A DNA stretch of 61,785 bases from positions 1-61,785 of the forward strand of contig JBBTZQ010000018.1 in the NCBI GenBank assembly GCA_038061275.1, read 5' to 3'. Under the pieces are notes generated by a model. That model was not told the origin of the DNA. It did no database searches and saw only the letters and a program-made list of their open reading frames with translations. The position numbers and the translations under genes were made by a program. Below, one piece after another: positions 5,180-57,782 of this stretch. This DNA is from Patescibacteria group bacterium (lineage in GTDB: Bacteria > Patescibacteriota > Minisyncoccia > Phycocordibacterales > UBA1550). How positions within the stretch are numbered: the first letter of the stretch is position 1; every line of letters begins with the position of its first letter.

Positions 5180-5989
5180 ATGAATGAACTAAAGCCCAAA
5201 CCGAAGAAAAACACCCATCATAAGAAAAAAATAAAAAAGACCTCTTGGGGAGGTGTCGCTGGATGGTACGATCAGCTTTTAGAAAAAAATGATGATACCT
5301 ACCAGACGAACGTGGTCTTGCCGAACCTAGTTCGAGCATTGGAAATTCGCAAAGGCCTTCGCGTTCTAGACCTTGCTTGCGGGCAAGGATTTTTCTCTCG
5401 AGCGTTTGCGCTAGAAGGAGCAGAAGTTGCGGGCGTTGATATTTCAAGCGAGCTCATTGACCTCGCAAAGAAACAATCGCCAAAGGAAATCAAATATTTC
5501 GTACGCTCTGCAGACGACCTTAGTGTATTTCAAGATGGATATTTTGAAAGGATTACCATTGTTTTATCAATACAAAATATTGAAGCACCCCATAAAGTTT
5601 TTAAAGAGTGCGCGCGTATACTTGCGCCCCAAGGGAAGCTTTTTATTGTCCTTAATCATCCCGCATTTCGTGTACCCAAAGAAAGTTCGTGGGGTTATGA
5701 TGAATCCACAAATATTCAGTACCGTCGCATTGACCGCTATATGTCGGAGAGTAAAGTAGAAATTGATATGAACCCAAGCAGACCTGGCTCAGTGAAGACG
5801 ATATCATTTCATCGTCCACTACAGTACTATTTCAAGACACTAGCAAATGCTGGATTTGCAACGACTCGTCTTGAAGAATGGCTTTCACATCGCGAAAGTG
5901 GACATGGCCCTAAAAAAGAAGCAGAGGACCGCGCGCGTATGGAGATACCACTTTTCCTTTTTCTTGAAGCACAAAAGCTGGTTAAATAA
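5180..5989 (+). CDS. class I SAM-dependent methyltransferase
   Basis: Motif I RVLDLACGQGFFS and acidic loop GVDIS, Methyltransf_11-like layout. Lys-rich N-terminal tail. Confidence 0.8.
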   Translation: MNELKPKPKKNTHHKKKIKKTSWGGVAGWYDQLLEKNDDTYQTNVVLPNLVRALEIRKGLRVLDLACGQGFFSRAFALEGAEVAGVDISSELIDLAKKQSPKEIKYFVRSADDLSVFQDGYFERITIVLSIQNIEAPHKVFKECARILAPQGKLFIVLNHPAFRVPKESSWGYDESTNIQYRRIDRYMSESKVEIDMNPSRPGSVKTISFHRPLQYYFKTLANAGFATTRLEEWLSHRESGHGPKKEAEDRARMEIPLFLFLEAQKLVK

Positions 5990-6018
5990 TTTTAGGCCCA
6001 TATGTTAGACTAAGTCTG

Positions 6019-6981
6019 ATGAGAAACTTATCGGGAGCAATATTCTTGGTATTGATTACTACCGGAGCATTCGGCGCTACTTTTTTGTATTTACAAAACA
6101 AGGCTCCTGTTGAGTTTGCACAAAAAGAAAATTCAGAAATTATTGGAATTATTGCTACGAGTACTCCGGTAGAGGATTCCAATACAAAGATTGTCGGCAC
6201 ACTTATAGCAACTAGTACTGAAGTAAAAAAAGTCACTGCGACACCTAAAAACATAGTTACTCCCGGCACCCTCGTAGCTCCGAAACTTACTGCCTCCATA
6301 TCGCCCGATCCTCTCACTGCTGATGGCGTGCTTTTCTTTACTAATGAAGCTCGTCTAAAAAATGGAGAACTCCCGCCACTTGCGAGAAACGCACTACTCA
6401 ACAATTTGGCTCAGATAAAACTCGCAGACATGTTTGCAAAGCAATATTTTGAACATATTTCGCCAATGGGGGTAGGCCCTGGAGATCTTGCAAAGACGGT
6501 TGGGTATGAGTTTGTGACTGTGGGAGAAAATCTCGCGCTCGGAGATTTTGAAAATGACGAGGCCTTGGTAGAGGCTTGGATGAACAGTCCAGGGCACCGA
6601 GCCAATATTTTAAATTTACGCTACACTGAAATTGGAATTGCCGTGGGGAAAGGGATGTATGAAGGGAATGAAACGTGGCTTACGGTCCAAAGTTTCGGTA
6701 TGCCGCTGTCGCTCTGTCCTGTGCTTAATACGGCGATCCGAGAGAAGATTGAAAAAAATAATGTTGAGATTGCAAGCATACAAAGCACGCTTGACGCACG
6801 GCGTGTGCGCATAGAGTCGACTCCACAAAGTGACCCAAACTACAATGCTTACGTCGCCGAATACAACGGGTTGATTCCGAGTTATGATGTGTTTGTCGCT
6901 CTGAATAAGGATCTCGTTTCAGCATTTAATTTGCAAGTAAAAGCATACAATGAGTGTATTTCAGGCGACAGCATCCATTAA
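6019..6981 (+). CDS. secreted/membrane-anchored CAP (SCP/PR-1, YkwD-like) domain protein
   Basis: N-terminal signal/TM segment. ..GENLALGDFENDEALVEAWMNSPGHRANILNLRYTEIGIAV.. is the CAP-domain core. Confidence 0.75.
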   Translation: MRNLSGAIFLVLITTGAFGATFLYLQNKAPVEFAQKENSEIIGIIATSTPVEDSNTKIVGTLIATSTEVKKVTATPKNIVTPGTLVAPKLTASISPDPLTADGVLFFTNEARLKNGELPPLARNALLNNLAQIKLADMFAKQYFEHISPMGVGPGDLAKTVGYEFVTVGENLALGDFENDEALVEAWMNSPGHRANILNLRYTEIGIAVGKGMYEGNETWLTVQSFGMPLSLCPVLNTAIREKIEKNNVEIASIQSTLDARRVRIESTPQSDPNYNAYVAEYNGLIPSYDVFVALNKDLVSAFNLQVKAYNECISGDSIH

Positions 6982-7036
6982 GATTTTTCATCGTATGGGT
7001 TTTGGTGGCGAAGGAACACAAAGACATGTATAATAG

Positions 7037-8080
7037 ATGTATCTTATGGGCAACACGAAACTACAAGTATATTTTATAGTTACCGTTCTTTTGGTCATCT
7101 CGGTCCTCACGTTTTTTATTTTTGAGCCTTTTCTCTCGGCTCTTGTACTTGCGATTGTGTGCGTGGTTGTGTTTAAACCTATTCACAAGAGGATCCTCGC
7201 TAATTTTGAAGAGTGGCCAGGACTTGCTGCGTTAGCAACGATTTCCGTCATCCTTGTCTTTGTGGTAACGCCTCTTTCGTTATTAGGCTCGCAGATTTTT
7301 CAGGAGGCGGGTCAAATATATTCATATTTGACCCACGAGGAAGGGAAAAGTGCTCTCACAAATGTGCTCAATATGGCATTGAGAGATATTGAAACGTACG
7401 TTCCTGTTGCTCAAGGATTTTCAGTGAACGTGGATCAATATATCAAACAGGGGCTTGAGTGGTTTCTTGGGAATCTCGGAGTTGTCTTCTCGAACCTTGC
7501 GAAAATTTTGTTAAGTTTGTTTGTATTTATTATTGCATTGTATTACTTGCTCAAGGACGGATACAAAATAAGAAAATTTATTGTTGCGCTTAGTCCATTG
7601 TCTGACGGTGATGACGAGGTGATTTTGAAAAAATTAGAAACTTCGGTTAATTCTATTGTGCGCGGTAGTCTCCTCATTGGATTTATTCAAGGAATTCTCA
7701 CGATGATCGGGTTTACGATTTTCGGTGTTCCCAACCCAATTCTTTGGGGAAGTATCGCAATGATAGCGTCACTTGTCCCGGGAATAGGGACTACGCTTGT
7801 CCTTGCTCCCGCTGTTTTGTTCCTCTTCTTGACTGGAGAGACGATATCGGGTTTTGGACTTCTTGCTTGGGGAATAGGTGCGGTAGGACTTGTTGATAAT
7901 CTTCTCGGACCAAAGCTTATTGGAAAGGGGATGCAACTTCATCCGCTCTTAGTACTCCTCGCGGTCCTTGGTGGACTAGCCTTCTTTGGGCCTATCGGAA
8001 TATTCTTGGGGCCACTTACGCTGAGCCTCCTCATTTCTATCTTAGAACTTCACTTTTCATTATCAAAACAAAAAAACTAG
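7037..8080 (+). CDS. AI-2E family transporter (PerM/UPF0118)
   Basis: 347-aa polytopic membrane protein. ..VNSIVRGSLLIGFIQGILTMIGFTIFGVPNPILWG.. is characteristic of AI-2E/PerM permeases. Confidence 0.8.
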   Translation: MYLMGNTKLQVYFIVTVLLVISVLTFFIFEPFLSALVLAIVCVVVFKPIHKRILANFEEWPGLAALATISVILVFVVTPLSLLGSQIFQEAGQIYSYLTHEEGKSALTNVLNMALRDIETYVPVAQGFSVNVDQYIKQGLEWFLGNLGVVFSNLAKILLSLFVFIIALYYLLKDGYKIRKFIVALSPLSDGDDEVILKKLETSVNSIVRGSLLIGFIQGILTMIGFTIFGVPNPILWGSIAMIASLVPGIGTTLVLAPAVLFLFLTGETISGFGLLAWGIGAVGLVDNLLGPKLIGKGMQLHPLLVLLAVLGGLAFFGPIGIFLGPLTLSLLISILELHFSLSKQKN

Positions 8081-8149
8081 GCTCATAAATTTTTGCGTAA
8101 AAGTTTATATGTTGTTGTCGTTTTTCTTATCTTTTGCTATCATATCCGC

Positions 8150-8374
8150 ATGATAAAAGATTTTTTATTGAAGCAAATGCTTAAGCGACAGCTCAAAGGT
8201 CTTCCTGAAGCTGAGATTGACCGTATTGTAGAACTCGTGGGCAAAAACCCAGAAGTCTTCAAAAAGATAGGCGATGAAATCAAAGCAAAGGTAAAGAGTG
8301 GACGTTCTCAGACTGCAGCAACTATGGAAGTTATGAGAGCACATCAGTCTGAGCTACAGAAAATTTTGAAATAG
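8150..8374 (+). CDS. hypothetical small protein
   Basis: ORF track starts at 8093. The first ATG (8150, MIKDFLLKQ..) is the more likely start. Charged helical sequence with no recognisable motif. Confidence 0.4.
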   Translation: MIKDFLLKQMLKRQLKGLPEAEIDRIVELVGKNPEVFKKIGDEIKAKVKSGRSQTAATMEVMRAHQSELQKILK

Positions 8375-8544
8375 GCGACTCATAACAAAAACCTTTTTGA
8401 GGAAGTTTTTTGTTTTTAAAATTTTAGCATCGCATTCTCCTGCAAAAGTATAGAAACGGAATATTATTTTTTCACAGCGTATACTCGTAATTATTGATCC
8501 AATAACCGTTAAAAGACTCTGGTATCGCGACAGACTTATTACTT

Positions 8545-8596
8545 AAGAAAAATAAAAACAAAAAACCCACCGAAGCAGGTTTCCTGTCGGTGGGTT
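8545..8596 (-). terminator. rho-independent terminator of the 8626..9141 gene
   Basis: aacccaccga...tcggtgggtt stem with inner cagg/cctg pairs. On the minus strand it is followed by ttttgtttttattttt. Confidence 0.8.
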
Positions 8597-24075: not shown

Positions 24076-25278
24076 ATGGTATTTTCTTTTCTTTTCAGCG
24101 AGAAACAAGACGACACACTCGCACTCCTCATTGATATAGGTTCGGCAAGCGTGGGAACTGCAATTGTTTCTCTTGAGGGAAAAAAATCAATCCTTAAAAC
24201 AAACAAAGTACCTCATGTTTTTGCAACAAACAGAGAGACGATACCGTTTCAAGAAACACTGTCATCAGCACCATTCCTTTCTGCGATGAATCATGCGCTT
24301 GAGCGTTCACTCAAGAATATTCAAAAGAAAACGAGGAGTCGTAGACCCCCCGCTCATATTTATTGCACGCTTTCATCACCATGGTTTATTTCTAAAACAC
24401 GGCATATTCAAATTTCGCGAGAGACTTCCTTTAAGGTTGATGAAAAAATACTCAATGATTTTCTTGATGAGGATATAGAAAATCTAAAGAAAGAACTTAA
24501 CGGCACGCTCACAGTAAAAGACATCGCTGTTATTGAAAAAAAAATCATTCAAATGAAGCTGAACGGGTACGAGATTAAAAATCCCTTAGGGAAAACTACT
24601 CCTCAAATAGAAATAATCTCAAACGTAAGTCTTTCTTCAGACAGGACTATTGAAAGCATTGAGCGCGCGATTGGGCATTTTTTCCATACCAAATCAATGC
24701 ATTTTTGTTCGTTCCCTCTTGCTGCATACAGTACGGTGAGAGATATATTCCCTGAAAAGAAAAATTTTTTGTTTATAGATATCACGGGAGAAGCAACTGA
24801 CATATCGCTCATCTCTAATGATCTTTTGATTGGCACCACTTCATTTGCGCAAGGGAAAAATTTCTTTATTCGTGCGATTTCCTCTGAGTTCAAAACACCA
24901 CACGAGGAAGCAGCTACTCTTTTTGGAATGTTTCTCAGTAATGCTTTGGATGCGAAGACTGAAGAGGCGGTTGCAACCGTAGTTAATAAAGGTCATACTG
25001 AATGGAGTACTCAGCTCGAAAAGTCGCTGATTACGCTAGCGAAAGAAACTCAAATCCCGAACGCGGTATATTTTACTTGTGATTCTGATGTGGCAACTCT
25101 TTTTTTGGGACTTATTGATAATTTAAAATCTGAATCTTTGGCAAACAATAATTTTGAAGCCAAATATATCGATCATTTTGCCGTAGCATCGTCTGTTACC
25201 TTTAACCCAAGTGTTGTCCGCGATCCATTTCTGGTGATAGAGGCACTGTTTGCATTTAAGCTTAACCAACAAAAATAA
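24076..25278 (+). CDS. hypothetical protein, actin-like ATPase (ASKHA; FtsA/PilM-like) fold suspected
   Basis: ..LALLIDIGSASVGTAIV.. (phosphate-1-like) and ..FLFIDITGEATDISLI.. (phosphate-2-like) spaced as in FtsA/PilM. Confidence 0.4.
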   Translation: MVFSFLFSEKQDDTLALLIDIGSASVGTAIVSLEGKKSILKTNKVPHVFATNRETIPFQETLSSAPFLSAMNHALERSLKNIQKKTRSRRPPAHIYCTLSSPWFISKTRHIQISRETSFKVDEKILNDFLDEDIENLKKELNGTLTVKDIAVIEKKIIQMKLNGYEIKNPLGKTTPQIEIISNVSLSSDRTIESIERAIGHFFHTKSMHFCSFPLAAYSTVRDIFPEKKNFLFIDITGEATDISLISNDLLIGTTSFAQGKNFFIRAISSEFKTPHEEAATLFGMFLSNALDAKTEEAVATVVNKGHTEWSTQLEKSLITLAKETQIPNAVYFTCDSDVATLFLGLIDNLKSESLANNNFEAKYIDHFAVASSVTFNPSVVRDPFLVIEALFAFKLNQQK

Positions 25279-25279
25279 T

Positions 25280-26617
25280 ATGGATGGAATAAAAAGAAAA
25301 TTAAATCAGGATTTACCTACGCCGAAGTCTGAGATTGCACGGAGACCTTCGTATGCGCCCGAGCTTCGTCCAGACCTTTTGCCAAGCGACACAAGTGAAC
25401 GTATTTCGAAAAATCCTTTTTTTGAAAAGAGCGATCATGTGAATGAAACTTTTCGTGTTAAGCCTGAAAGAAACAATCCTCTATTATTGTGGGGATTAGC
25501 TGTTATTTCTTTAGTCGTTCTTGGGTTGATACTTGTTACGAGTTATTTTTCATCCGCCACCATTGAAATTGTTCCCGTGACTCAAAAGATAGAGATTGAC
25601 CAAGAATTTACTGCGGTCAAAGATCCAGAAGAAAACCAACTCGCGTTCTATTCTATGGTCTTAAATGAGGAAAAAGCAAAGGAAATACCGGCAACTATAG
25701 AAAAAAAGATTCAAGAGAAAGCTTCTGGAAGAGTGATTATTTTTAATACTTACAGTAAGGATCCTCAACGGCTCATAAAAAATACACGTCTTGAGGCAAC
25801 AGGAGGGAAGATATTCAGAATCAATGATTCCGTAGTTGTTCCCGGCACAAAAATGGTAAATGGAAAAATGGAACCTGGGCAAATAGAAGCTGTTGCATAT
25901 GCGGACGCTGCAGGCAAGGAATACAATTTGGGGGTTGTTGACTTCACGATTCCAGGATTTAAGGGCGACCCTCGCTACACTAAATTTTTTGCTCGTTCTG
26001 TAGAATCGAGCCCTCTCTCGGGCGGTTTTTCTGGGAGCGTAAAGGTACCTTCAGACGAAGATATTTCTAAAGCTCAACAAGAACTAAAAGAAGATCTAAA
26101 AAAATCCTCTATAGAAAAAGCACAGGCTAAAATTCCTGAAGGAGTAACATTTTTCCCAGGAAGTGTTGTGCTTAAATATGAAGAAGTTCCACAGGACCCT
26201 TCTCAAGAAGAACGCAAGAATGTAATAGTGAAATCAACTCTTTTAGTATTCTTTTTTGACACCGCTTCATTGACCAATAAAATGGCTAAAGAAGTTCTTA
26301 AGGAGGATAAGAATGCTGCGCAAACAATTTCCAATATGTCCTCGCTCGTTTTCTCGTTTGTTGACCCCGTGGACAATATCATTTTAAGCGATCTTTCAGC
26401 AATTAAGTTTAGAATTGCAGGGAATATAGTTTTTGTCGGTGATATCAATAAAGAAAAGCTCGTTAAAGACCTCGCAGGGAAGAACAATAATGAATTCTCA
26501 AGCGTAATAGAACAACAGGCAAACATAAGAAAAGCGAATGGTGAAATATTCCCCATGTGGAATTCTTCGTTTCCAAAGGATCCTGCTGACATATCGGTAA
26601 AAATAATAAACGAGTAA
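25280..26617 (+). CDS. hypothetical bitopic membrane protein (disordered N-terminus, 1 TM, large extracytoplasmic domain)
   Basis: ATG at 25280 lies 1 nt after the previous stop. TM LLLWGLAVISLVVLGLILV. No recognisable catalytic motif. Confidence 0.45.
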   Translation: MDGIKRKLNQDLPTPKSEIARRPSYAPELRPDLLPSDTSERISKNPFFEKSDHVNETFRVKPERNNPLLLWGLAVISLVVLGLILVTSYFSSATIEIVPVTQKIEIDQEFTAVKDPEENQLAFYSMVLNEEKAKEIPATIEKKIQEKASGRVIIFNTYSKDPQRLIKNTRLEATGGKIFRINDSVVVPGTKMVNGKMEPGQIEAVAYADAAGKEYNLGVVDFTIPGFKGDPRYTKFFARSVESSPLSGGFSGSVKVPSDEDISKAQQELKEDLKKSSIEKAQAKIPEGVTFFPGSVVLKYEEVPQDPSQEERKNVIVKSTLLVFFFDTASLTNKMAKEVLKEDKNAAQTISNMSSLVFSFVDPVDNIILSDLSAIKFRIAGNIVFVGDINKEKLVKDLAGKNNNEFSSVIEQQANIRKANGEIFPMWNSSFPKDPADISVKIINE

Positions 26618-34835: not shown

Positions 34836-34868
34836 CATTAACGCCATTCCATGAAAAAGAGGTGTGAA

Positions 34869-34958
34869 ATGAACATTATATCGTATGCTGGTCCTGGCGA
34901 AGGCACTTGCCCAGATTGTCCAGGTGACCCAGGTGATGCGCCCTGTGACGGTGGTTAA
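34869..34958 (+). CDS. 29-aa Cys/Pro/Gly/Asp-rich mini-protein MNIISYAGPGEGTCPDCPGDPGDAPCDGG (candidate precursor peptide)
   Basis: ATG at 34869 preceded by AGAGGT (5-nt spacer). An in-frame ATG at 34851 would add MKKRCE. The coding stretch is visibly more GC-rich than its flanks. A hairpin follows. Not in the ORF track (<60 aa). Confidence 0.3.
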   Translation: MNIISYAGPGEGTCPDCPGDPGDAPCDGG

Positions 34959-34972
34959 CTTTTCCACTAGTA

Positions 34973-35006
34973 AATATCCCCCGTTTTTTAATAGGCGGGG
35001 GATATT
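34973..35006 (+). terminator. 11-bp stem hairpin after the mini-ORF (possible terminator/attenuator)
   Basis: aatatcccccg (12-nt T-rich loop) cgggggatatt. No clean 3' T-tract, so function is uncertain. Confidence 0.45.
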
Positions 35007-35030: not shown

Positions 35031-37058
35031 ATGAATTTCCCAAAAACTCAAAAAGAGAATATTGAAGAAAAAATTTTTGACACAGTTATTAATGACCCCT
35101 ATCGATGGCTTGAGAATGGAGAAAGCAGAGAGACAAAAGAATGGGTTGATGCGCAAAATGCTTATATTGATCTGAATCTTCGGAATGAAACTTTTGAGAT
35201 GTTTTCTCGAGAGCTTACTCAAGATTTTAAAATTACTAATTTTTCGAACCCCATCCCTTGCAGAGGAAAATATTTCTTTTCTGAGAGACAGCCTGATGAA
35301 GACCAGTTTGTGGTTTATGTAAAAGAAGGAATTCACGGGACTCCTATCAAGCTCGTTGATCCTAACGGAATGAATTCAAGTAATACGGTCGCTATTGATT
35401 TTTGGTCAATATCAAGAACAGGGAAGTATTTGGTGTACGGCCTTTCGCATGGCGGTGATGAAATGCCGACCATGTACATTAAAGACATTGGTGCTGATAG
35501 TGCCCCCGAGCAAATTCCGCGCTGTAAAAATGCTCAGGCGAGATGGCTCCCTGATGATTCCGGCTTTTATTATAAAAGAAATCCTCAAGAAGGCGCTGTT
35601 CCTAGAAATGAAGAGCACCTACACTCGAAAGTCTATTTTCACCAAATAGGTCAAAATCCAGAAAACGACGAACTTATCTTTGGGGAGGGTCGTCCCAAAG
35701 ATGATATGCTTACATTGGCTATTTCGTTAGATGGAAGATATTTAGCTGTTGAGGCATCTAGAAATTGGACTGAAAATGAAATATATATTTATGATAGGGA
35801 GAACAAACAGACAACACCTTTAATAATTAATATCCCCGCACTTTCTTCGATTTTCTTTTTAGAAGACAAGGCGATACTCTATACAAATTACGAGGCAAAT
35901 AATTATCGAACTCTCTCTATGTCACTTAATTCTCTCTTTGTTCCCATTGAGCAATGGCAAGAATTAATTCCTGAAAGAGAGGTCCTTCTGCGATCAATTG
36001 TCCCAACTAGAGACAAGATTCTTGCTGATTATTTAGTGAACGCTTGCTCTAAAGCAGTAATCTTTGACCAACAAGGAAAAGAACAAGAAGAAATACCTCT
36101 TCCACCATACTCCAATCTCACTGGCATTTCTGCTCGTCGCGAAGAACATGAATTTTTTTATGGAGTAGAATCCTTCACATTTCCTAAGGTGACTTATCGA
36201 TATATCCCTGATGAACGTACGTTTGCTGAATATAGAAGAACACAAAGCTCGATAGATTCTGATGAATATATCGTCAAGCAGGAATGGTATTCGTCTAAAG
36301 ACGGCACTAAAATACCCCTATTTATTTTTCATAGGAAGGATTTAAAAACCAGCGGATTCCACCCAACTATTCTTTATGGATATGGTGGGTTTGGTCATTC
36401 ACTGACACCTTTGTTCAATAGAAATTTTATACCTTGGATTAAGCGAAACGGCATTTTTGCAGTTGCAAACATACGAGGAGGTGCAGAGTTTGGTGAAGAG
36501 TGGCATAAGCAAGGAATAAAAGAGAACAAGCAAAATAGCTTTGATGATTTTATTGCCGCTGCTGAGTACTTAATAAAGGAAGGATACACTGACCGTAGCC
36601 ACCTAGGTATTTTAGGAGGAAGTAACGGAGGTCTTTTGGTAAGCGCCGTAGAGACTCAAAGACCAGAACTCTTTAAGGCGGTATGTTCAAGGGTTCCACT
36701 TGCTGATATGGTGCGATTCCCGCTTTTTGGCATGGCTTCTCGCTGGGTTCATGAATACGGGGATCCAAATAACAAAGAGGATTTGCTCAGAATATTGAAA
36801 TGGAGTCCTTACCATACTACAAAGGAAGGAATAGAATATCCTGCCACCTTTTTTACAACTGCAGACAAGGACTCGCGAGTCAATCCTCTCCACGCTCGAA
36901 AAATGGCAGCCATGCTTCAATCAATCAATAAAAAAAACAGTATTTTTATTTTTACTGAAATGGAGGCTGGGCACGGTCCTGGCAAACCGATAACAAAAAC
37001 CGTAGAAAGCTGGGCGCTGATACTTACCTTCTTTGCAAAAGAGCTTGGTTTAGGTTAA
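35031..37058 (+). CDS. prolyl oligopeptidase (peptidase S9A family)
   Basis: N-terminus ..DPYRWLE.. and beta-propeller. The catalytic domain has ..GILGGSNGGLLV.. (GxSxGG nucleophile elbow) and ..DKDSRVNPLHARK.. and ..EAGHG.. Confidence 0.9.
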   Translation: MNFPKTQKENIEEKIFDTVINDPYRWLENGESRETKEWVDAQNAYIDLNLRNETFEMFSRELTQDFKITNFSNPIPCRGKYFFSERQPDEDQFVVYVKEGIHGTPIKLVDPNGMNSSNTVAIDFWSISRTGKYLVYGLSHGGDEMPTMYIKDIGADSAPEQIPRCKNAQARWLPDDSGFYYKRNPQEGAVPRNEEHLHSKVYFHQIGQNPENDELIFGEGRPKDDMLTLAISLDGRYLAVEASRNWTENEIYIYDRENKQTTPLIINIPALSSIFFLEDKAILYTNYEANNYRTLSMSLNSLFVPIEQWQELIPEREVLLRSIVPTRDKILADYLVNACSKAVIFDQQGKEQEEIPLPPYSNLTGISARREEHEFFYGVESFTFPKVTYRYIPDERTFAEYRRTQSSIDSDEYIVKQEWYSSKDGTKIPLFIFHRKDLKTSGFHPTILYGYGGFGHSLTPLFNRNFIPWIKRNGIFAVANIRGGAEFGEEWHKQGIKENKQNSFDDFIAAAEYLIKEGYTDRSHLGILGGSNGGLLVSAVETQRPELFKAVCSRVPLADMVRFPLFGMASRWVHEYGDPNNKEDLLRILKWSPYHTTKEGIEYPATFFTTADKDSRVNPLHARKMAAMLQSINKKNSIFIFTEMEAGHGPGKPITKTVESWALILTFFAKELGLG

Positions 37059-37120
37059 GAACAGGCGGTACTATTCGTATATAATCGTAAACAGATATGT
37101 TATAATGGTTATGATTTATT

Positions 37121-38224
37121 ATGAGGATTAGAACACCAAAAATTTATAAGGACAAAGAAGAACTTCCAGAGGGTACAGAGGTTGTTGATATTGTAGACTC
37201 TGCTCTCAAAGAACTTTTTATTGTCGAGAATCCACATTTTAAAAATAGTCCGGATAATCTTGGTGAGCAAATTAAAAATTTTTCATCAGAATATGAAAAG
37301 GACATAATCTGGGCGTATCTTCCATGGAAAAATATTGCTATTAGAATGCCGAGTGAAGCCGTTTATTATAAACTTCGTACAGCAAGAAACAGAAATATTA
37401 TAAGAGAAGAAGAACAAGAAAAATATAGAAACTGCCACGCAGGAATAGTCGGGCTGTCGGTCGGATCGTCAATATTAGCGTCGCTTGTAATGACTGGTGG
37501 TCCTAAAAAAATAAAGATTGCTGATTTTGATGTACTGGAGACAACAAACCTCAATCGTTTGAGAGGAAAAATTTTTGATATTGGGAAAGTTAAAACAGAT
37601 ATTGCAGCAAAAGAAACATGGGAGCTCGACCCTTTTGCAGATCTTGAGTTATGGCACGAAGGTGTTACGAAAGATACGATTGAGAATTTTATTTTGTCGC
37701 CGAAGCTTGATATTTTTATCGACGAGATGGATAGCATTCATATTAAGATTCTTTCCCGCATCATATGTAAAGAAAATAGAATACCTGTTTTAATGGCGAC
37801 AGACAATGGTGATAGTATAATTCTTGATGTAGAAAGATTTGATCTTGAGCCGGAGCGTCCTATTTTTCACGGTTTGCTCAACGACGATGACCAAAAAAAC
37901 CTTGAAGACCTCACGTTTAAAGATTGGCTCAAGCTCGCGACAAAAATTGTTGACGCTGAATACTTAACGCCACGAATGCAGGAATCTCTCTTGGATATAG
38001 GACTTAAAAAAATTCCCTCGGTTCCTCAGCTCGGCACTACTGCAGCTATCGCTGGTGCGGCGGTTGCTTATGCAGTTCGACAAATTTCCAACGGAGTTGC
38101 GCTCCCTTCTGGTAGATACACATTAGGACTGGAGTCAACTATATCTACAAATTATAATGAGGAAGAGCAGGTAGTTGAGCGCAAAAAAAGAACCGAGGAA
38201 TTTAAGAGCAAATTCATGAAATGA
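37121..38224 (+). CDS. ThiF/E1-like adenylyltransferase-fold protein (Rv1355c N-terminal-domain-like)
   Basis: ..WAYLPWKNIAIRMP...RTARNRNIIREEEQEK...GIVGLSVGSSILASLVMTGG..IKIADFDVLETTNLNR.. Rossmann-like E1 core with the GLSVG variant I associate with Rv1355c/MoeY-type proteins (from memory). Confidence 0.65.
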   Translation: MRIRTPKIYKDKEELPEGTEVVDIVDSALKELFIVENPHFKNSPDNLGEQIKNFSSEYEKDIIWAYLPWKNIAIRMPSEAVYYKLRTARNRNIIREEEQEKYRNCHAGIVGLSVGSSILASLVMTGGPKKIKIADFDVLETTNLNRLRGKIFDIGKVKTDIAAKETWELDPFADLELWHEGVTKDTIENFILSPKLDIFIDEMDSIHIKILSRIICKENRIPVLMATDNGDSIILDVERFDLEPERPIFHGLLNDDDQKNLEDLTFKDWLKLATKIVDAEYLTPRMQESLLDIGLKKIPSVPQLGTTAAIAGAAVAYAVRQISNGVALPSGRYTLGLESTISTNYNEEEQVVERKKRTEEFKSKFMK

Positions 38225-39648
38225 AAAAAATACAAGGAATTGAAGTAGCTATCAACACACTTAAATGGGCTGCCAAAACAGTACCTGCCTATAGAGAATT
38301 TCTGAAAAAAAATAATTTTCAGATTAAAAATATAAAGACAGTCGATGATTTTTCCGCTGTCCCTTTGATGGATAAAGATAATTATATTAAAGCATACCCT
38401 TATTTAGACCTTTTTCCGCTTGGTAAAGTACCTTCAGTTATATCATCAAGCTCGGGTTCGTCAGGAACTCCATTTTATTGGCCGCGCGGACGAGAACAAG
38501 AAATCGCGGGAGGGAATTTGCACGAACCAATCTTTAGAGATATTTTTAAGATAGGAAAGAAGAGAACTCTTGTCGTTAATTGTTTTTCAGCAGGAACATG
38601 GATTGCAGGAGCATTTACTACAGAATCATGTAGGCATTTGGCTGAAACAAAAGGATATAATATTTCCGTAATTCCACCAGGAATTGAAAAAGAAGATATT
38701 TTATCAATTTTGAAGAGACTTGCGCCCTTGTTTGATGTTGTTGTTATTGCAGGATACCCTCCATTTTTGATGGACGTGGTTACTGAAGCTTCATCACGAG
38801 ATATACCTCTAAAAAATATGAACATTAAGTTTATATTTGCAGGAGAAAATTTTTCTGAGAAATGGCGACAAGTAATATGCGACATTGCATTTATTGAGGA
38901 TATTGAGCACTCTGTGGCGAGTGTTTATGGTACAGCGGACGCTGCAATGTTGGGACACGAGACACCTCTTTCAATTTTTATTCGTCAAAAAGCAAATAAA
39001 AATAAAGCGTTCTTTAAAGAATTTTTTGGAGATCTGACATTTTTGCCAACACTTGTACAATATCAACCTGACCATATTTATTTTGAAAATATTAATAATG
39101 AAATTGTATTCACTGTTAAAGGAGGAATTCCACTTGTGCGCTACAATATTCGAGACCGAGGAAGAATTTTTTCTCATACTGAGATACGAGCGATACTGAA
39201 AAAATACAAGTACGATAAAGAGATAGCGCATGAATTAAAAAAATGGGAAATGCCATTTGTGAGCCTTCACGGAAGAAATGATGTTTCCGTGACATTTTAT
39301 GCCTTAAACATGTTTCCTGAAAATTTCAAATACGGACTTGAGGACACTCGTATTTCGGAATATGTAACAGGGAAATTCGTAGTTTCTTCTAAAACTACAA
39401 GTGACCAAAAAACACAAGAACTTCATTTGTCTATAGAGCTTTCTCCGAACATTCATAAAAAAACGATCCCCATTGCCGTAATAGAAAAGATTATCGTAGA
39501 GAGGTTGCGTAACTCAAATACTGAGTATCGTAAACTTCATGATACTTTGGGAAAAAAAGCTATTCCTAAAATAAAACTCTTGCCATATTCAGACCCAGTG
39601 TTTATTCTGAAGAAGATAAAACATTCTTGGATAAAAAAGGAAATATAA
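38221..39648 (+). CDS. PaaK-like / coenzyme F390 synthetase-like adenylate-forming enzyme (ANL superfamily)
   Basis: ATGA overlap with the upstream gene. ..SSSGSSGTPFYWPR.. phosphate-binding loop and ..YGTADAA.. motif in PaaK-like order. 475 aa. Confidence 0.65.
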   Translation: MKKIQGIEVAINTLKWAAKTVPAYREFLKKNNFQIKNIKTVDDFSAVPLMDKDNYIKAYPYLDLFPLGKVPSVISSSSGSSGTPFYWPRGREQEIAGGNLHEPIFRDIFKIGKKRTLVVNCFSAGTWIAGAFTTESCRHLAETKGYNISVIPPGIEKEDILSILKRLAPLFDVVVIAGYPPFLMDVVTEASSRDIPLKNMNIKFIFAGENFSEKWRQVICDIAFIEDIEHSVASVYGTADAAMLGHETPLSIFIRQKANKNKAFFKEFFGDLTFLPTLVQYQPDHIYFENINNEIVFTVKGGIPLVRYNIRDRGRIFSHTEIRAILKKYKYDKEIAHELKKWEMPFVSLHGRNDVSVTFYALNMFPENFKYGLEDTRISEYVTGKFVVSSKTTSDQKTQELHLSIELSPNIHKKTIPIAVIEKIIVERLRNSNTEYRKLHDTLGKKAIPKIKLLPYSDPVFILKKIKHSWIKKEI

Positions 39649-39649
39649 T

Positions 39650-40711
39650 ATGAAAGAAACGATAAAAAAAATACTTGAATACGCAGTGTATGCTCCGTCT
39701 GGAGACAATTCTCAGCCATGGCGTTTTGTCGTTAAGGGAAATAAGATATTTCAGTATAATCTTCCGTTTGAAGATAATATTTATTTGAATTATCAACAGA
39801 GTGGATCATACGTCTCTCACGGTGCGGTAATAGAAAATATATTTATCGCAAGTTCTCATTTTGGTTATGCTACTAATGTAGAATTGTTTCCTGAAAACAG
39901 TGAACAGGATTTAGTAGCTATTCTGGATCTACAAGAAGCGAATATATCTATTGATCCAGAATTTGAATGTATAAAGAGTAGGTGTGTAAACCGCAGGCCG
40001 TATGATTCACGCGAGATTGGAAAGGAGTTACTTGAGAGTATTAAAGCATCTATTAAAAAAGAGTTCGATTTTCAAGGACTATCATTCATCACAGACCGAG
40101 GATCTATTAAGGAAGTTGGGGTCGCTGCAACAGTCATGGAGCGTATTGCTCTTCGGAATCCTGTTATTCATAAATTGTTTTTTTCTGGAATTATTTGGAC
40201 TGATAAAGAACACAGACAAAAGAAAAAAGGACTCTATATAAAAACACTCGAATTGCCACTACCGGTTCAGTACCTCTTTAGACTTTTTAAGCATTGGCCA
40301 GTCATGTCGTTTTTGGGACGCATTGGGTTCCCCGAAAAAGCAGCGAACGGAAATGCGGAAATCAATGCTAAGAGTGCCGCATTTGGGATAATTACGACCA
40401 AACAATCATCCCCGAAGGATTTTATTCTTGCTGGAAGGGTGATGCAGAGAATTTGGTTAAAGACCACAAGCTTAGGTTTGTCTTTGCAGCCAGTGACCGG
40501 ACTTCTTTTTTTAGCACACAGAGTGAAAGATAATCAGACTGAAGGATTATCTCTAATTCAAACAGAAATGATCAAAGATGGAATTTCAGTAATAGAAAAG
40601 AAATTTAGTTTGAAAGACGAAATTCCAATAATGATGTTTCGGATTGGGTATGCTAAAAAACCTACAGCTAACTCATTCCGGATGGAACCCAAAGTGATTT
40701 TTAAAGAGTAG
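39650..40711 (+). CDS. nitroreductase-superfamily FMN oxidoreductase (Acg / Rv1355c C-terminal-domain-like, double-length)
   Basis: Starts 1 nt after the upstream stop. ..ILEYAVYAPSGDNSQPWRFVV.. signature. The length of about 350 aa is typical of Acg-type tandem nitroreductase folds. Confidence 0.65.
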   Translation: MKETIKKILEYAVYAPSGDNSQPWRFVVKGNKIFQYNLPFEDNIYLNYQQSGSYVSHGAVIENIFIASSHFGYATNVELFPENSEQDLVAILDLQEANISIDPEFECIKSRCVNRRPYDSREIGKELLESIKASIKKEFDFQGLSFITDRGSIKEVGVAATVMERIALRNPVIHKLFFSGIIWTDKEHRQKKKGLYIKTLELPLPVQYLFRLFKHWPVMSFLGRIGFPEKAANGNAEINAKSAAFGIITTKQSSPKDFILAGRVMQRIWLKTTSLGLSLQPVTGLLFLAHRVKDNQTEGLSLIQTEMIKDGISVIEKKFSLKDEIPIMMFRIGYAKKPTANSFRMEPKVIFKE

Positions 40712-40724
40712 ATTTTCTAATAAT

Positions 40725-42302
40725 ATGGATATTTTTTTAAATTTAGACTTGCTTGTTTTAGGAATCGTAATTGCTGGGATTGCGGTCATTGGGGCTGCTG
40801 TGTTTCTCACAAATTATCAAAACAAAACATACAGATATTTCTTCTACTTTTTATTAATTACAATAGTCTGGAGTTTGTTGAGCTATCAGAGCTACTTGTC
40901 CGGAGCAACTTTAGGCAACCTAAGGGCTGTAATCTTCGTCGCGGTTTGGCACTCATTTTTGTTTTTCCAATTTTGTTTCGTATTCCCGAAAGAGTCAATC
41001 GCCCTTCCTTTCTGGTATAAGTATATGTTGATACCGTATATTATTGGTGTTTCAGTATTAACACTTACACCTGCGGTTTTTTTAAAAATAACAGAGTATG
41101 CGTCAGACGGAACAGTGCTCGTTGTAGAAAATGGAGGAGGAATCGCAATTTTCGGCATCACAGTCTTTTTGCTTATTCTTGGCGGAATATTTATCTTAGT
41201 CAAGAAATACATTCAAGAAGTACCAGAAGAAAGGAAGCAATTAAGATTTATTTTGATTGGCGTTGTAATAACATTTACTCTTTTAGTCACCTTTAGTTTT
41301 GTATTACCAGCTATCTTTCAAGATGCTAGATTCTTCAAGCACGGGGTTTTGGCGTTGATTCCATTTATTGCTCTAACGTTCTATGCGATTTATAAACATA
41401 AACTTTTTAATATAAAAGTTGTATCAACTGCTTTCCTGGTATTTCTAGTTACTGTTTTTAGTATTTCTAATATTCTTTTTTCTGAAACACCTATTAGTGT
41501 GACAGTAAATACCACAGCATTTTTGATAATTCTGATTGGAAGTATTCATCTTATTAGTGATATGTTAAAACTTGAGAGGGCAAATGAAGAAAAAGCGGAA
41601 TTTATATCTTTTGCCTCCCACGAACTTCGTACTCCACTTACTGTGATCAAAGGTTACTCGTCAATGATGCTTGATGGAGATTTTGGAGAATTAAATCAAA
41701 ATTCACGTGATGCTTTGCAAAAAATACTCGTGAAGTCAAATGAAGCAGTAAGCTTAATTGGTCAATATTTGAACAAATCAAAAATGGAGCTTGGTCAGCT
41801 GCGTTACAATTTAAGTACGTTTGACATGGGGAATCTGGTTCGCTTGGCTGGGAGTGAATTTGGACATAACGCTGATCAAAAGGGTATTACGATTAATTAT
41901 ACAAATGATAATAAAGAATCCTACGCGGTAAATGCAGATGAGGGCAAAATAAAAGAAGTCGTGGCTAATTTGATAGACAACGCTGTAAAGTACACCCCCA
42001 AAGGCTCTGTGGATATTTACCTTTCTCGCACTAACGACAAGATTTTATTGAAAATATCAGATACTGGAGTCGGTATTTCGTCAGAAAGCTATCCTCTTTT
42101 ATTTAAAAAATTCGGACGCTTAAAGGGAACCGAAAAAGCAGGTATTTTGGGAACCGGGCTTGGTCTGTATTTGGCTCATACTTTTATTACCGCTCACAAG
42201 GGACGTATTTGGGCGGAGTCAAAAGGTGATGGGGAGGGTTCGACATTTTTTATCGAGCTTGATGCTTTCAAAAATACATCCATTGCTCCGGAAATGTCAT
42301 AA
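40725..42302 (+). CDS. sensor histidine kinase with N-terminal 7TM-type sensor region
   Basis: About 7 TM helices, then HisKA (..FISFASHELRTPLTVIKGY..) and HATPase_c (..LIDNAVKYTP.., ..DTGVGI.., ..GTGLGLYL..). No response regulator adjacent. Confidence 0.85.
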   Translation: MDIFLNLDLLVLGIVIAGIAVIGAAVFLTNYQNKTYRYFFYFLLITIVWSLLSYQSYLSGATLGNLRAVIFVAVWHSFLFFQFCFVFPKESIALPFWYKYMLIPYIIGVSVLTLTPAVFLKITEYASDGTVLVVENGGGIAIFGITVFLLILGGIFILVKKYIQEVPEERKQLRFILIGVVITFTLLVTFSFVLPAIFQDARFFKHGVLALIPFIALTFYAIYKHKLFNIKVVSTAFLVFLVTVFSISNILFSETPISVTVNTTAFLIILIGSIHLISDMLKLERANEEKAEFISFASHELRTPLTVIKGYSSMMLDGDFGELNQNSRDALQKILVKSNEAVSLIGQYLNKSKMELGQLRYNLSTFDMGNLVRLAGSEFGHNADQKGITINYTNDNKESYAVNADEGKIKEVVANLIDNAVKYTPKGSVDIYLSRTNDKILLKISDTGVGISSESYPLLFKKFGRLKGTEKAGILGTGLGLYLAHTFITAHKGRIWAESKGDGEGSTFFIELDAFKNTSIAPEMS

Positions 42303-42313
42303 CCAGGCCATGT

Positions 42314-42340
42314 AAAAAAGCTTTAACTGAAAGCTTTTTT
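42314..42340 (+). terminator. rho-independent terminator
   Basis: aaaaaagcttt aactg aaagctttttt. Confidence 0.75.
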
Positions 42341-56414: not shown

Positions 56415-57011
56415 TTATGTTGCTAATCTTAGGATGGCTCTTTCGACGTCCATTCCTTCCTTAACCTTGCACGCATCTTCGTAAAGTCTCTTACGACGAG
56501 AAACCCATTCATCGACAGTAATGTCGAAGTATGTCTGGATCAGATTTACTTCAATTTTCATTTCTTCAAGAATTGTTGATAGATCTGTACGAATTACCTG
56601 AACAATTTCGGCCCTCTCGTACTTGTCCAAACGATCAGTTCTTTCCTCCTTGAGATAAGTTATTTTAATGAGCAACCAGGATTCATGGTCGATTCCAAAA
56701 GCGAAACGTCTGTTACCATTTTGCTGGCTAAAGTTATTGCCAGCATAAAGACCTCGTGAGTCTAAGTTGAACTGGTTATCAATGCTGGTAACTCGTGGGG
56801 TATCATTATACAGATCATGATAAAATAGATTACCTGAGTCCATACAGGTTAGTTGCCCGATTGTATTCATGGAAAATGTTTTCATGCACCTGACGAGAAT
56901 CTCACGACGGTATTCAAGTACTTGCAACTGTTGTTCCCTTGTAAGTTTCTTACCTTCCAAAAGTTCCTTAAGCACAGCACTTGCTGGTGCTGATTTTGGT
57001 TTTTCAAACAT
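56415..57011 (-). CDS. hypothetical protein (no recognisable domain)
   Basis: 198-aa ORF with AAGGAGG SD, its own promoter-like hexamers and its own terminator. Confidence 0.5.
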   Translation of the reverse strand: MFEKPKSAPASAVLKELLEGKKLTREQQLQVLEYRREILVRCMKTFSMNTIGQLTCMDSGNLFYHDLYNDTPRVTSIDNQFNLDSRGLYAGNNFSQQNGNRRFAFGIDHESWLLIKITYLKEERTDRLDKYERAEIVQVIRTDLSTILEEMKIEVNLIQTYFDITVDEWVSRRKRLYEDACKVKEGMDVERAILRLAT

Positions 57012-57135
57012 GGGCGTACCCTCCTTTTCAATTTAGAGGGGCGTACCCCTCGGAGTTCTACTGTAGCATTTATATGACATTTATCAAACCATCCGTACTA
57101 CTTTTGAGAATGAATCCCTGCGTAGTTCTTTCGCT

Positions 57136-57174
57136 GTATAAAAAGACAGGCGACCCAGAAATTAGGTCGCCTGT
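57136..57174 (-). terminator. rho-independent terminator of 57195..57782 gene
   Basis: acaggcgacc cagaaatta ggtcgcctgt. The minus strand continues cttttta. Confidence 0.7.
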
Positions 57175-57194
57175 GAATATTAAGAGTAACGTTC

Positions 57195-57782
57195 TTAGTG
57201 AAGTGTCGATCCTTTTTCGTTTGAAAAAATTATATTGAGGAGTTGCGCTATATCAACTTGCGCTTCTTTGAAGATTGATTCAACGTACCTATCTTCGAGT
57301 GCCCATGCGTTACTTTCTGCTTCTATATCTCGGACAAGTGTATGGAAATTTTTTAGGTCCATTGGCGTGCCTAAACTTTCATTGACGGGCATTGGAACAA
57401 CTAAAGTATGAGGAATCGCAAGTTCGAACATTGCACACCAAGCTAGGTAATAATTCCCCAAGAATGCTGGAGGAACTTTTCTTGGTATTATTGTAATTTG
57501 TTCAAGTGCATCAAGGAAGCAATCTTCATGGCTTAGGTCCTCGTCTCGCAGCTCATTTAAGGATTCAGCTTCAAGATATTCATGAAGAATGATTTCGCTC
57601 TCCATGATCGTAGTCATTCTAAGCTCGGTAATCTCAAGAGCGTAGTCCAGAAACGGTATATAAAGGAGTTTTTTTACTGTTTCAAATCTGCTTCGAGCAA
57701 TATCATGGTCAAACCCCCTCTCTCTTTCAGGGATTTTGGAGACCATATCATAGATAACATCAGATATTTTTTGTGTATCCAT
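57195..57782 (-). CDS. hypothetical acidic protein (no recognisable domain)
   Basis: 195-aa ORF preceded on the minus strand by AAGGGAGGGGAG SD. Own terminator. Confidence 0.5.
   Translation of the reverse strand: MDTQKISDVIYDMVSKIPERERGFDHDIARSRFETVKKLLYIPFLDYALEITELRMTTIMESEIILHEYLEAESLNELRDEDLSHEDCFLDALEQITIIPRKVPPAFLGNYYLAWCAMFELAIPHTLVVPMPVNESLGTPMDLKNFHTLVRDIEAESNAWALEDRYVESIFKEAQVDIAQLLNIIFSNEKGSTLH

Follow-up and report, generated by a model that had tools for sequence, protein, structure and literature searches.

A predicted split oxazolone-synthetase pair, a PaaK-like ligase and a seven-transmembrane histidine kinase in a recurrent Patescibacteria gene cluster

Results

A four-gene locus in a Patescibacteria genome

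We analysed a stretch of 61,785 nucleotides from a Patescibacteria group bacterium (GenBank assembly GCA_038061275.1, contig JBBTZQ010000018.1; hereafter the window, 61.8 kb), in which four adjacent genes encode a ThiF/E1-like protein, a PaaK-like ligase, an oxidase of the nitroreductase superfamily and a histidine kinase with a seven-transmembrane (7TM) domain (Table 1). Positions 37121-42302 constitute one four-gene operon of this genome, which belongs to Patescibacteria (CPR, or Candidate Phyla Radiation; Parcubacteria-type). On balance, we think that the operon directs the synthesis of a small molecule of the oxazolone type, that no acyltransferase takes part and that this synthesis is coupled to a dedicated membrane sensor kinase.

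The four genes are tightly packed. The stop codon of the ThiF-like gene and the start codon of the ligase gene overlap in an ATGA at 38221-38224, a single nucleotide separates the ligase TAA (39646-39648) from the oxidase ATG at 39650 (junction TAA-t-ATG, 39646-39652), and the kinase start lies 13 nt past the oxidase stop. In related loci the median gap is 2-5 nt at every adjacency, kinase included, whatever the gene order. A preliminary description of this DNA had proposed one tightly coupled operon, which these junctions bear out, and every motif that it quoted (IVGLSVGS, ADFD, NLNR, SSSGSSGTPFYWPR and APSGDNSQPWRF) was recovered in the translations of the open reading frames (ORFs). The unit is nevertheless a tetrad and not the triad described there, the co-operonic 7TM histidine kinase having been overlooked.

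Table 1. Features of the operon, of its surroundings and of related loci. Positions refer to the window unless a locus is named.
Feature	Position	Strand	Size and remarks
ThiF/E1-like ORF	37121..38224	+	367 aa
PaaK-like ligase ORF	38221..39648	+	475 aa
Nitroreductase-superfamily oxidase ORF	39650..40711	+	353 aa
7TM-HisKA-HATPase histidine kinase ORF	40725..42302	+	525 aa; gene 4 of the operon
Spacer 5' of the ThiF-like gene	37059..37120	+	62 nt; putative operon promoter (weak evidence)
AT-rich palindrome AAAAAAGCTTT-aactg-AAAGCTTTTTT past the kinase stop	42314..42340	+	putative operon end (weak evidence)
Small ORF MKKRCEMNIISYAGPGEGTCPDCPGDPGDAPCDGG	34851-34958	+	35 aa, or 29 aa if started at an inner ATG that follows GAGGTG
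Fusion locus L168	6001-9729
Fusion locus L169
Fusion locus L170	4095-6737
Fusion locus L171	1114-3705
MIO lyase (ASG motif), locus L165	6697-8289		between ligase and oxidase
MIO lyase (ASG motif), locus L166	2705-4294		between ligase and oxidase

The ThiF-like protein and the oxidase resemble the two halves of an oxazolone synthetase

The ThiF-like protein matches Pfam ThiF (E 3.2e-21) and, far more strongly than any other model, the N-terminal half (36-351 of 722) of the NCBIfam 'Rv1355c family' NF005901 (E 1.8e-88, 297.6 bits; runner-up 64.6 bits). All ThiF, MoeB, TcdA and E1 models stay at or below 65 bits, the best ThiF/MoeB sulfur-carrier model reaching 53.4 bits against a cutoff of 159, which places the protein outside that group of E1 enzymes. 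NF005901 is likewise the best family for all 16 of the 16 Patescibacteria homologs. Across sets of 45 and 16 homologs the motifs G111-x-S-x-G-S (G111-L-S-V-G-S116 in the window protein), D135/D137, N143-L-N-R146, K158 and D201-E-M-D204 are conserved; the ATP-binding site is thus complete, and a CxxC pair is absent from the translation. Since the ATP-binding and Asp motifs are retained, the protein is not a docking-only E1-like domain; homology and these motifs predict an adenylating cyclase that is active and falls within the oxazolone synthetase clade.

The third protein matches the C-terminal half of the same family (375-713 of 722; E 2e-49) and of the fusion model PRK14851 (326-671 of 679; E 7.9e-61), and 18 of 18 homologs receive the identical assignment. 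Its NF005901 score and that of the ThiF-like protein sum to 466 bits, against a full-length cutoff of 476 bits, and the preliminary description was therefore right to see split halves of Rv1355c in the two proteins. Its 'Acg-type' label for the oxidase is an approximation: the best structural match is indeed MsAcg (2YMV), but the fusion-type oxidase models outscore the Acg model NF047509, where the protein reaches 133.2 bits, below the cutoff of 199, and so falls outside the Acg family. The AlphaFold2 model of the oxidase (predicted local distance difference test, pLDDT, 91.4) superposes over its whole length on 2YMV only (TM 0.70/0.75), ordinary nitroreductases spanning half of the chain. The protein is therefore a pseudo-dimeric enzyme in one chain, a flavin-dependent oxidase from the nitroreductase superfamily. 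Among its invariant residues are A15PSGxNxQPW24, R111 and N114-R115.

Several members of this enzyme group have been characterized. OxzB of Pseudoalteromonas rubra, a ThiF-nitroreductase fusion, is an oxazolone synthetase working with the N-acyltransferase OxzA (De Rond et al., bioRxiv 10.1101/2020.06.11.147165). In Mycobacterium tuberculosis, TyzA N-acylates Tyr or Phe, TyzB cyclizes N-acyl-Tyr in an ATP-dependent reaction, and TyzC performs its O2-dependent desaturation (Grigg et al., PMC10404671). Rv1355c, which the preliminary description had still called uncharacterized, has been identified as the oxazolone synthetase TrzS, which both cyclizes and desaturates the N-acyl-Trp that TrzA provides; its D217A mutation abolishes cyclization, and the nearest structural homolog of its oxidase domain is Acg 2YMV (Kleetz et al., PMC12856293), the closest structure for our oxidase model as well. 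In planctomycete clusters for N-acyl dehydrotyrosines, the same ThiF/nitroreductase pair is accompanied by a synthase of N-acyl amino acids and by a methyltransferase (PMC12479983).

By homology, the ThiF-like protein is the split counterpart of TyzB and of the N-terminal TrzS/Rv1355c half, and the oxidase, its partner, corresponds in the same way to TyzC and to the C-terminal TrzS/OxzB half. The DxxD adenylation motif of the former and the FMN-site (flavin mononucleotide) arginines of the latter are conserved as in TrzS/OxzB, whose families, NF005901 and PRK14851, are the best-scoring curated ones for both halves. TrzS and OxzB are single polypeptides, whereas in the window the two halves are split and bracket the ligase. 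TyzB/TyzC, of the N-acyl tyrazolone pathway, are split like the present pair, with a separate ATP-dependent ThiF-type cyclase and a single-chain flavin oxidase of ~350-370 aa with an Acg-like fold in one operon. That pathway differs in its host (Actinomycetota rather than Patescibacteria) and in relying on an N-acyltransferase resembling acyl-homoserine lactone (AHL) synthases and on acyl-coenzyme A (acyl-CoA), whereas a PaaK-like ligase between the genes and a 7TM kinase are found here.

E1-like enzymes often act on the C-termini of proteins or peptides, as for ThiS, MoaD and MccA, and the operon might accordingly modify a peptide or protein, either as in ribosomally synthesized and post-translationally modified peptides (RiPPs), including the thiazole/oxazole-modified microcins (TOMMs), or in a ubiquitin-like manner: the ThiF-like protein would activate or dock a C-terminus, the ligase would add a group and the oxidase would tailor it. 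A candidate substrate lies 2.2 kb upstream, a Cys/Pro-rich ORF of 29-35 aa with four Cys and a Gly-Gly end, situated between dnaJ and a prolyl oligopeptidase gene that separates it from the ThiF-like gene. We consider this reading improbable. The small ORF is missing from the closest relative of the locus (L165) and from all other loci, the oligopeptidase is kept in L165 only, and no small ORF accompanying the cluster is conserved anywhere. The ThiF-like protein scores 297 bits to the oxazolone cyclase family and no more than 65 bits to ThiF/MoeB/E1 models, no ThiS/MoaD-like gene recurs in the related loci by ORF clustering, and YcaO is neither found among the window ORFs scanned nor recurrent in the loci. 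No SagB-type model is among the NCBIfam matches of the oxidase, the presence of such a model in the library not having been checked.

The same evidence bears on the parallel that the preliminary description drew to McbB/McbD/McbC. There too an E1-like, an ATP-using and an FMN-dependent nitroreductase-superfamily protein share one operon (McbB/McbC/McbD; TOMM), but in the window unit YcaO and a conserved precursor peptide are missing, the oxidase has no match of the SagB/McbC type and the E1-like ATP site is complete. As Rv1355c is TrzS and acts on small N-acyl amino acids, both this analogy and the accompanying idea of peptide backbone activation become unnecessary, besides lacking support. 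One of the nearest relatives by sequence with a solved structure is TcdA, the tRNA ct6A synthase (E ~6e-7 to the ThiF-like protein), which likewise cyclizes the carboxylate of an N-acylated amino acid with ATP (PMC13139853). Its substrate is tRNA t6A, and the ThiF-like protein reaches only 33.7 bits against a TcdA cutoff of 304. The small ORF itself, followed by a 14-bp GC-rich hairpin at ~34970-35005, was dropped as a precursor peptide candidate, being conserved neither in the closest relative nor in any of ~170 loci and having no Rfam match.

The cluster recurs across Patescibacteria

Searching one genome per GTDB species with the ligase as seed returned 260 relatives, from which 80 loci were kept. 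Of these, 59 are neither from Nostoc nor from Chloroflexia; they are mostly labelled Patescibacteria, a few carrying other or unspecific labels, and their lineages include Nomura-, Pacei-, Niyogi-, Doudna-, Yanofsky-, Lloyd- and Magasanikbacteria, among others. By tblastn, the ThiF-like gene was detected in 52 of the 59 loci, the 7TM kinase also in 52 and the oxidase in 35, while ORF clustering, which includes divergent copies, finds the oxidase in 46 of 59. Gene order varies: the arrangements include ThiF-ligase-oxidase-kinase (16 occurrences), oxidase-ThiF-ligase-kinase (11) and ligase-ThiF-(oxidase)-kinase (~14). Altogether the cluster is present in more than 100 Patescibacteria loci. The arrangement is more than chance, because the same genes co-localize in most of the 59 genome loci and in 36 of 42 loci of an independently seeded metagenome scan described below; the triplet of the preliminary description is thus not unique to this genome.

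Score correlations were also tried as a proxy for co-evolution (rho 0.45-0.68 among ThiF, oxidase and kinase; 0.09 for ligase vs ThiF) and were given no weight, the loci having been picked by ligase similarity with relatedness uncontrolled.

A 7TM sensor kinase is reciprocally linked to the enzymes

The product of gene 4 matches Pfam HisKA_7TM, HisKA and HATPase_c, its H-box (SHELRTP) and its N and G boxes are conserved, and its sensor part consists of the membrane-embedded domain only. The kinase adjoins the enzymes in 52 of the 59 ligase-seeded loci. For the reverse census, metagenomes were scanned with the 7TM domain alone, for which an alignment of 15 sequences was too divergent and one of five sequences worked. 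In 42 of the loci found, 4.5 kb or more lie upstream; there, 41 carry the oxidase, 38 the ligase, 36 the ThiF-like gene, 36 all three and one none of them. Taken together, the two censuses (52/59 and 41/42) therefore link the kinase family and the enzymes reciprocally.

No receiver domain is present in the whole 61.8-kb window, and the partner of the kinase is therefore not nearby in the genome; in 24 of 120 related loci, single-domain receivers of ~130 aa are adjacent. The idea that helix 7 of the kinase might carry a Lys as in rhodopsins was dropped, the invariant K231 sitting in the loop before the last helix, at a loop/helix boundary and not within a helix. One locus (L130) carries tandem 7TM kinases of the same family (5261-6973 and 7001-8566) 3' of an oxidase gene, with ligase and ThiF-like genes absent.

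Autoinducer synthases beside a membrane histidine-kinase receptor whose sole sensor is a transmembrane domain are known from CqsA/CqsS and LuxM/LuxN of Vibrio. The placement of biosynthetic genes beside a multi-pass membrane kinase is a likeness of function only; the Vibrio systems have no sequence relation to the present one and use other chemistry. From its linkage to the enzymes, the kinase probably detects the pathway product or its precursor by means of the membrane domain.

The middle protein is a PaaK-like ligase that occurs fused to the ThiF-like cyclase

The ligase has no Pfam family. Its best curated match is TIGR02155 (PaaK) with 33.8 bits against a cutoff of 646.3, far from the PaaK equivalog, and by sequence its match to PaaK in the PDB has an E of 0.005. 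Its AlphaFold2 model (pLDDT 81) finds the aryl-acid adenylases PaaK1/2 and BT_0428 as top Foldseek hits (E ~1e-21, best 8e-22, to 1e-18), followed by ClxA, HCL and AjiA1 (E ~1e-16 to 1e-12); identity to these solved enzymes is 15-18%. The motifs S77SGSSG82xP, Y236GxAD240, Y308xxxD312xG and R352xD354, of ANL type, are invariant. Judging from the model, the middle protein is a deep-branching PaaK-like ANL ligase with the two-domain short PaaK-type fold, from an uncurated clade for which a profile search of 1.84 billion representatives (E<=1e-30) gave no fewer than 882 representative clusters. The assignment to the ANL superfamily in the preliminary description holds, and simple orthology to PaaK or CapK, raised there as an objection, does not apply. 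With PaaK1/2, BT_0428 and ClxA/NatL2/AjiA1 the ligase shares the short PaaK-type fold and the ANL core motifs; unlike them, it lies far below every curated cutoff and has neither a paa nor a benzoxazole context, no paa catabolic genes occurring in the window or in related loci. A GH3-type amido synthetase was rejected as a candidate, no GH3 structure being among the top 50 Foldseek hits.

Ligase and ThiF-like domains also occur in natural single proteins (Table 1). P0384 is a ThiF-ligase fusion, P0447 (in L171) a ligase-ThiF fusion, and P0467, identical in two NCBI assemblies, joins a Glu/Leu/Phe/Val-type dehydrogenase, the ligase and ThiF in one chain. Among the fusions found, those of Patescibacteria combine ThiF with the ligase and never ThiF with the oxidase. 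After each of the three proteins come an alpha/beta-hydrolase of ~291 aa and the 7TM kinase, and an oxidase gene is adjacent to P0384 and P0467, none being called in L171. Because such direct fusions exist, there is strong evidence, at the level of gene architecture, that ligase and ThiF-like enzyme would act in consecutive steps; the domain order of the triple fusion P0467 agrees with the reaction order that we propose below. The hydrolase is a recurrent accessory at the fusion loci and is present in L045 too.

How the ligase contributes to the pathway is the point at which a second reading must be weighed. It may be only an aryl- or acyl-CoA (or carrier-thioester) ligase, with an N-acyltransferase encoded elsewhere in the genome making the substrate of the ThiF-like enzyme and the oxidase. 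All known oxazolone clusters do have N-acyltransferases dependent on acyl-CoA or acyl carrier protein (ACP), and the best structural matches of the ligase, PaaK, BT_0428 and HCL, are CoA ligases. We nonetheless give this reading a minor share. Neither the 61.8-kb window nor ~170 related loci yielded an acyltransferase, the ligase-ThiF fusions argue for consecutive steps with no enzyme between, and the PaaK-like ClxA and NatL2 offer a precedent for CoA-independent condensation in this fold, forming C(O)-N and C(O)-O bonds (amide and ester) with ATP (PMC12519233; PMC7204872). We infer that the ligase supplies the N-acyl amino acid in place of the OxzA/TyzA/TrzA acyltransferase.

The ligase clade is broader than the pathway, since the homologs in Nostoc and Chloroflexia come without ThiF-like protein, oxidase or histidine kinase. 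The Nostoc homologs (37-38% identity; L058, L064-L066 and L068-L080, ligase at ~6001-7400) are always preceded by two divergently transcribed genes for Ser/Thr protein kinases.

Sister loci carry amino-acid-deaminating enzymes that the window lacks

Many sister loci contain an aromatic amino-acid lyase of the methylidene-imidazolone (MIO) type, PF00221, whose best model is the tyrosine ammonia-lyase FlxA (560 bits vs 433 for HutH). In the two closest relatives, whose ThiF-like proteins are 76% and 68% identical to that of the window, the lyase sits between ligase and oxidase. Its selectivity dyad there reads Ala/Ser-His, which we take to be HAL-like (histidine ammonia-lyase), although the best hidden Markov model is that of FlxA. 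Sister loci also contain a dehydrogenase that most resembles ScyB, a tryptophan dehydrogenase (293 bits), and further inserts include class I/II aminotransferases, a D-2-hydroxyacid dehydrogenase, S-adenosylmethionine (SAM)-dependent methyltransferases and single-domain receivers. The deaminating enzymes fit an acid made from an amino acid. With a ligase-oxidase junction of one nucleotide, the window represents a lyase-less variant, and as it lacks both lyase and dehydrogenase, the acid would here come from elsewhere.

A locus that lacks any acid-making enzyme and has a kinase sensing only through its membrane domain could also serve to sense and transform exogenous aromatic acids or host metabolites, the kinase detecting them and the enzymes converting or neutralizing them; PaaK-like enzymes commonly start the catabolism of aromatic acids. 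Such a detoxification or scavenging role seems unlikely to us, in that no locus contains downstream catabolic genes, the accessory genes (ammonia-lyase, dehydrogenase, aminotransferase, methyltransferases) are biosynthetic in character and the ThiF/oxidase pair is known from biosynthesis only.

The pairing of lyase and ligase in many sister loci also recalls tyrosine ammonia-lyase and coumarate ligase, and thereby the chromophore supply of photoactive yellow protein. By this analogy, a reactive oxazolone (azlactone) might covalently acylate the kinase or another protein and serve as its ligand or chromophore. Oxazolones are electrophiles easily opened by nucleophiles, and the known ones absorb at 360-400 nm. 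Yet the kinase gives no sign of a conserved mid-membrane nucleophile, K231 lying at a loop/helix boundary, many of the source habitats are dark subsurface, and the idea is purely inferential; we regard it as very improbable.

Between ligase and kinase, one further locus (L002) encodes an M19 membrane dipeptidase (7487-8428). M19 is the family of renal dehydropeptidase, and the enzyme could act on ring-opened N-acyl dehydroamino acids.

Discussion

A predicted pathway to an oxazolone

The pathway that we favor, synthesis of an oxazolone-type molecule by ligase, ThiF-like cyclase and oxidase, would run as follows. The ligase would adenylate a carboxylic acid and couple it to an amino acid at the amino group, so that an N-acyl amino acid results; a route through an acyl thioester is a less likely alternative. 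An aromatic acid of amino-acid origin is probable, because the fold is PaaK/ClxA-like and the accessory enzymes are deaminating. By homology to TyzB, TrzS and OxzB, the ThiF-like enzyme would then adenylate the alpha-carboxylate, upon which the amide oxygen closes the oxazol-5-one ring. By homology to TyzC, TrzS and OxzB, the oxidase would desaturate the C-alpha/C-beta bond to a 4-alkylidene or 4-arylidene oxazolone, ring opening of which would leave an N-acyl dehydroamino acid. In a last step, the 7TM kinase would sense this product or a precursor.

Several points weigh against this pathway. The product of this cluster type is a prediction from homology, fusions and gene context. At 15-18% identity to any solved enzyme, the substrates of the ligase and its use of CoA can only be deduced. 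Pfam finds no acyltransferase-type domain in 37 window ORFs or in the recurrent or exceptional cluster genes; with an N-acyltransferase of the OxzA/TyzA/TrzA/NasY kind absent, the substrate of the ThiF-like enzyme is likewise deduced. Its D204 was equated with D217 of TrzS from the position in the motif and not from a direct alignment. The 61.8-kb window contains neither lyase nor dehydrogenase nor receiver. Some loci are without a tblastn-detectable oxidase (35 of 59 positive), though divergent copies are picked up when ORFs are clustered. O2 is required by the known oxidases, whereas many Patescibacteria inhabit places low in oxygen.

A further point against it comes from two other subtypes of the cluster, B and C. 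There, the ThiF-like protein is still of the Rv1355c type (~300 bits), and the oxidases (L007, 2853-3827; L027, 4872-5846, minus strand) belong to the Acg family, with 189.5 and 213.3 bits to NF047509, at or near its cutoff. The Acg/FDO-B subfamily has been considered to lie outside oxazolone making (Grigg et al., PMC10404671). Acg-family oxidases, which are associated with dormancy of M. tuberculosis, would thus be linked to ThiF-like cyclases in some subtypes, contrary to the expectation of that study (PMC10404671).

A possible signalling role for oxazolones

What do oxazolones do in the cell? Their discoverers speculate about signalling, based on the likeness to AHLs and on a neighborhood of cyclic di-GMP genes, with no direct link (PMC12856293). 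Oxazolones hydrolyse and alcoholyse readily (PMC12856293). The linkage of a kinase to the enzymes is much stronger genomic evidence for oxazolone signalling than this earlier hint. Near-obligatory across many Patescibacteria lineages, which have tiny genomes and little secondary metabolism, it makes the signalling hypothesis testable. With this operon, bacteria as minimal as these may both produce a small, reactive molecule for signalling and sense it. At the same time, the ligase points to a different, possibly CoA-independent supply of N-acyl amino acids through a new PaaK-like clade.

A more far-reaching version, in which the operon is a self-contained circuit, that is, an acyltransferase-independent and possibly CoA-independent oxazolone synthase wired to its own 7TM receptor kinase, we put forward only tentatively. 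If true, it would represent a new class of autoinducer or host cue characteristic of Patescibacteria, and the first direct genetic evidence for oxazolones as signalling molecules. Three oxazolone papers that were searched for these terms make no mention of an adenylate-forming ligase, Patescibacteria or a histidine kinase, and the library searched contains no paper pairing Patescibacteria or CPR with ThiF, oxazolone or phenylacetate-CoA ligase. New here is a split oxazolone-synthetase pair that has recruited a new PaaK-like ligase and a dedicated 7TM kinase and that is conserved across Patescibacteria.

Operon boundaries and genomic surroundings

The boundaries of the operon may be marked by candidate elements (Table 1). 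The spacer ahead of the ThiF-like gene is AT-rich with TATAAT-like boxes and contains a promoter-like match at 37088-37115, and the palindrome past the kinase is predicted to form a hairpin of -11 kcal/mol (z = -1.5). Promoter and terminator scans gave no more sites in total than in shuffled sequence, and the consensus terminator scan did not call the palindrome.

Upstream, the S9 prolyl oligopeptidase gene (35031-37058, plus strand) ends 62 nt before the operon. Apart from L165, the closest relative (68% identity), no locus has it in this place, and it was rejected as an operon member for that reason. Rfam gave zero matches in the window, and nothing credible in the spacer between dnaJ and the oligopeptidase gene. 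An AI-2E family transporter gene (7037-8080, plus strand; PF01594, E 1.4e-48) is found 29 kb upstream, with nothing linking it to the operon, and four ORFs of 400, 455, 198 and 195 aa at 24076-26617 (plus strand) and 56415-57782 (minus strand) have no Pfam family.

The flanks are otherwise housekeeping in nature, with ribosomal proteins, rpoA and grpE-dnaK-dnaJ ahead of the oligopeptidase gene, and trpS, aspS, scpA/B, a penicillin-binding protein gene and mraY downstream. The four operon genes have a G+C content of 35-38%, vs 44-47% in dnaK, dnaJ, trpS and aspS, and this low value could result from horizontal acquisition or from a different selective regime.

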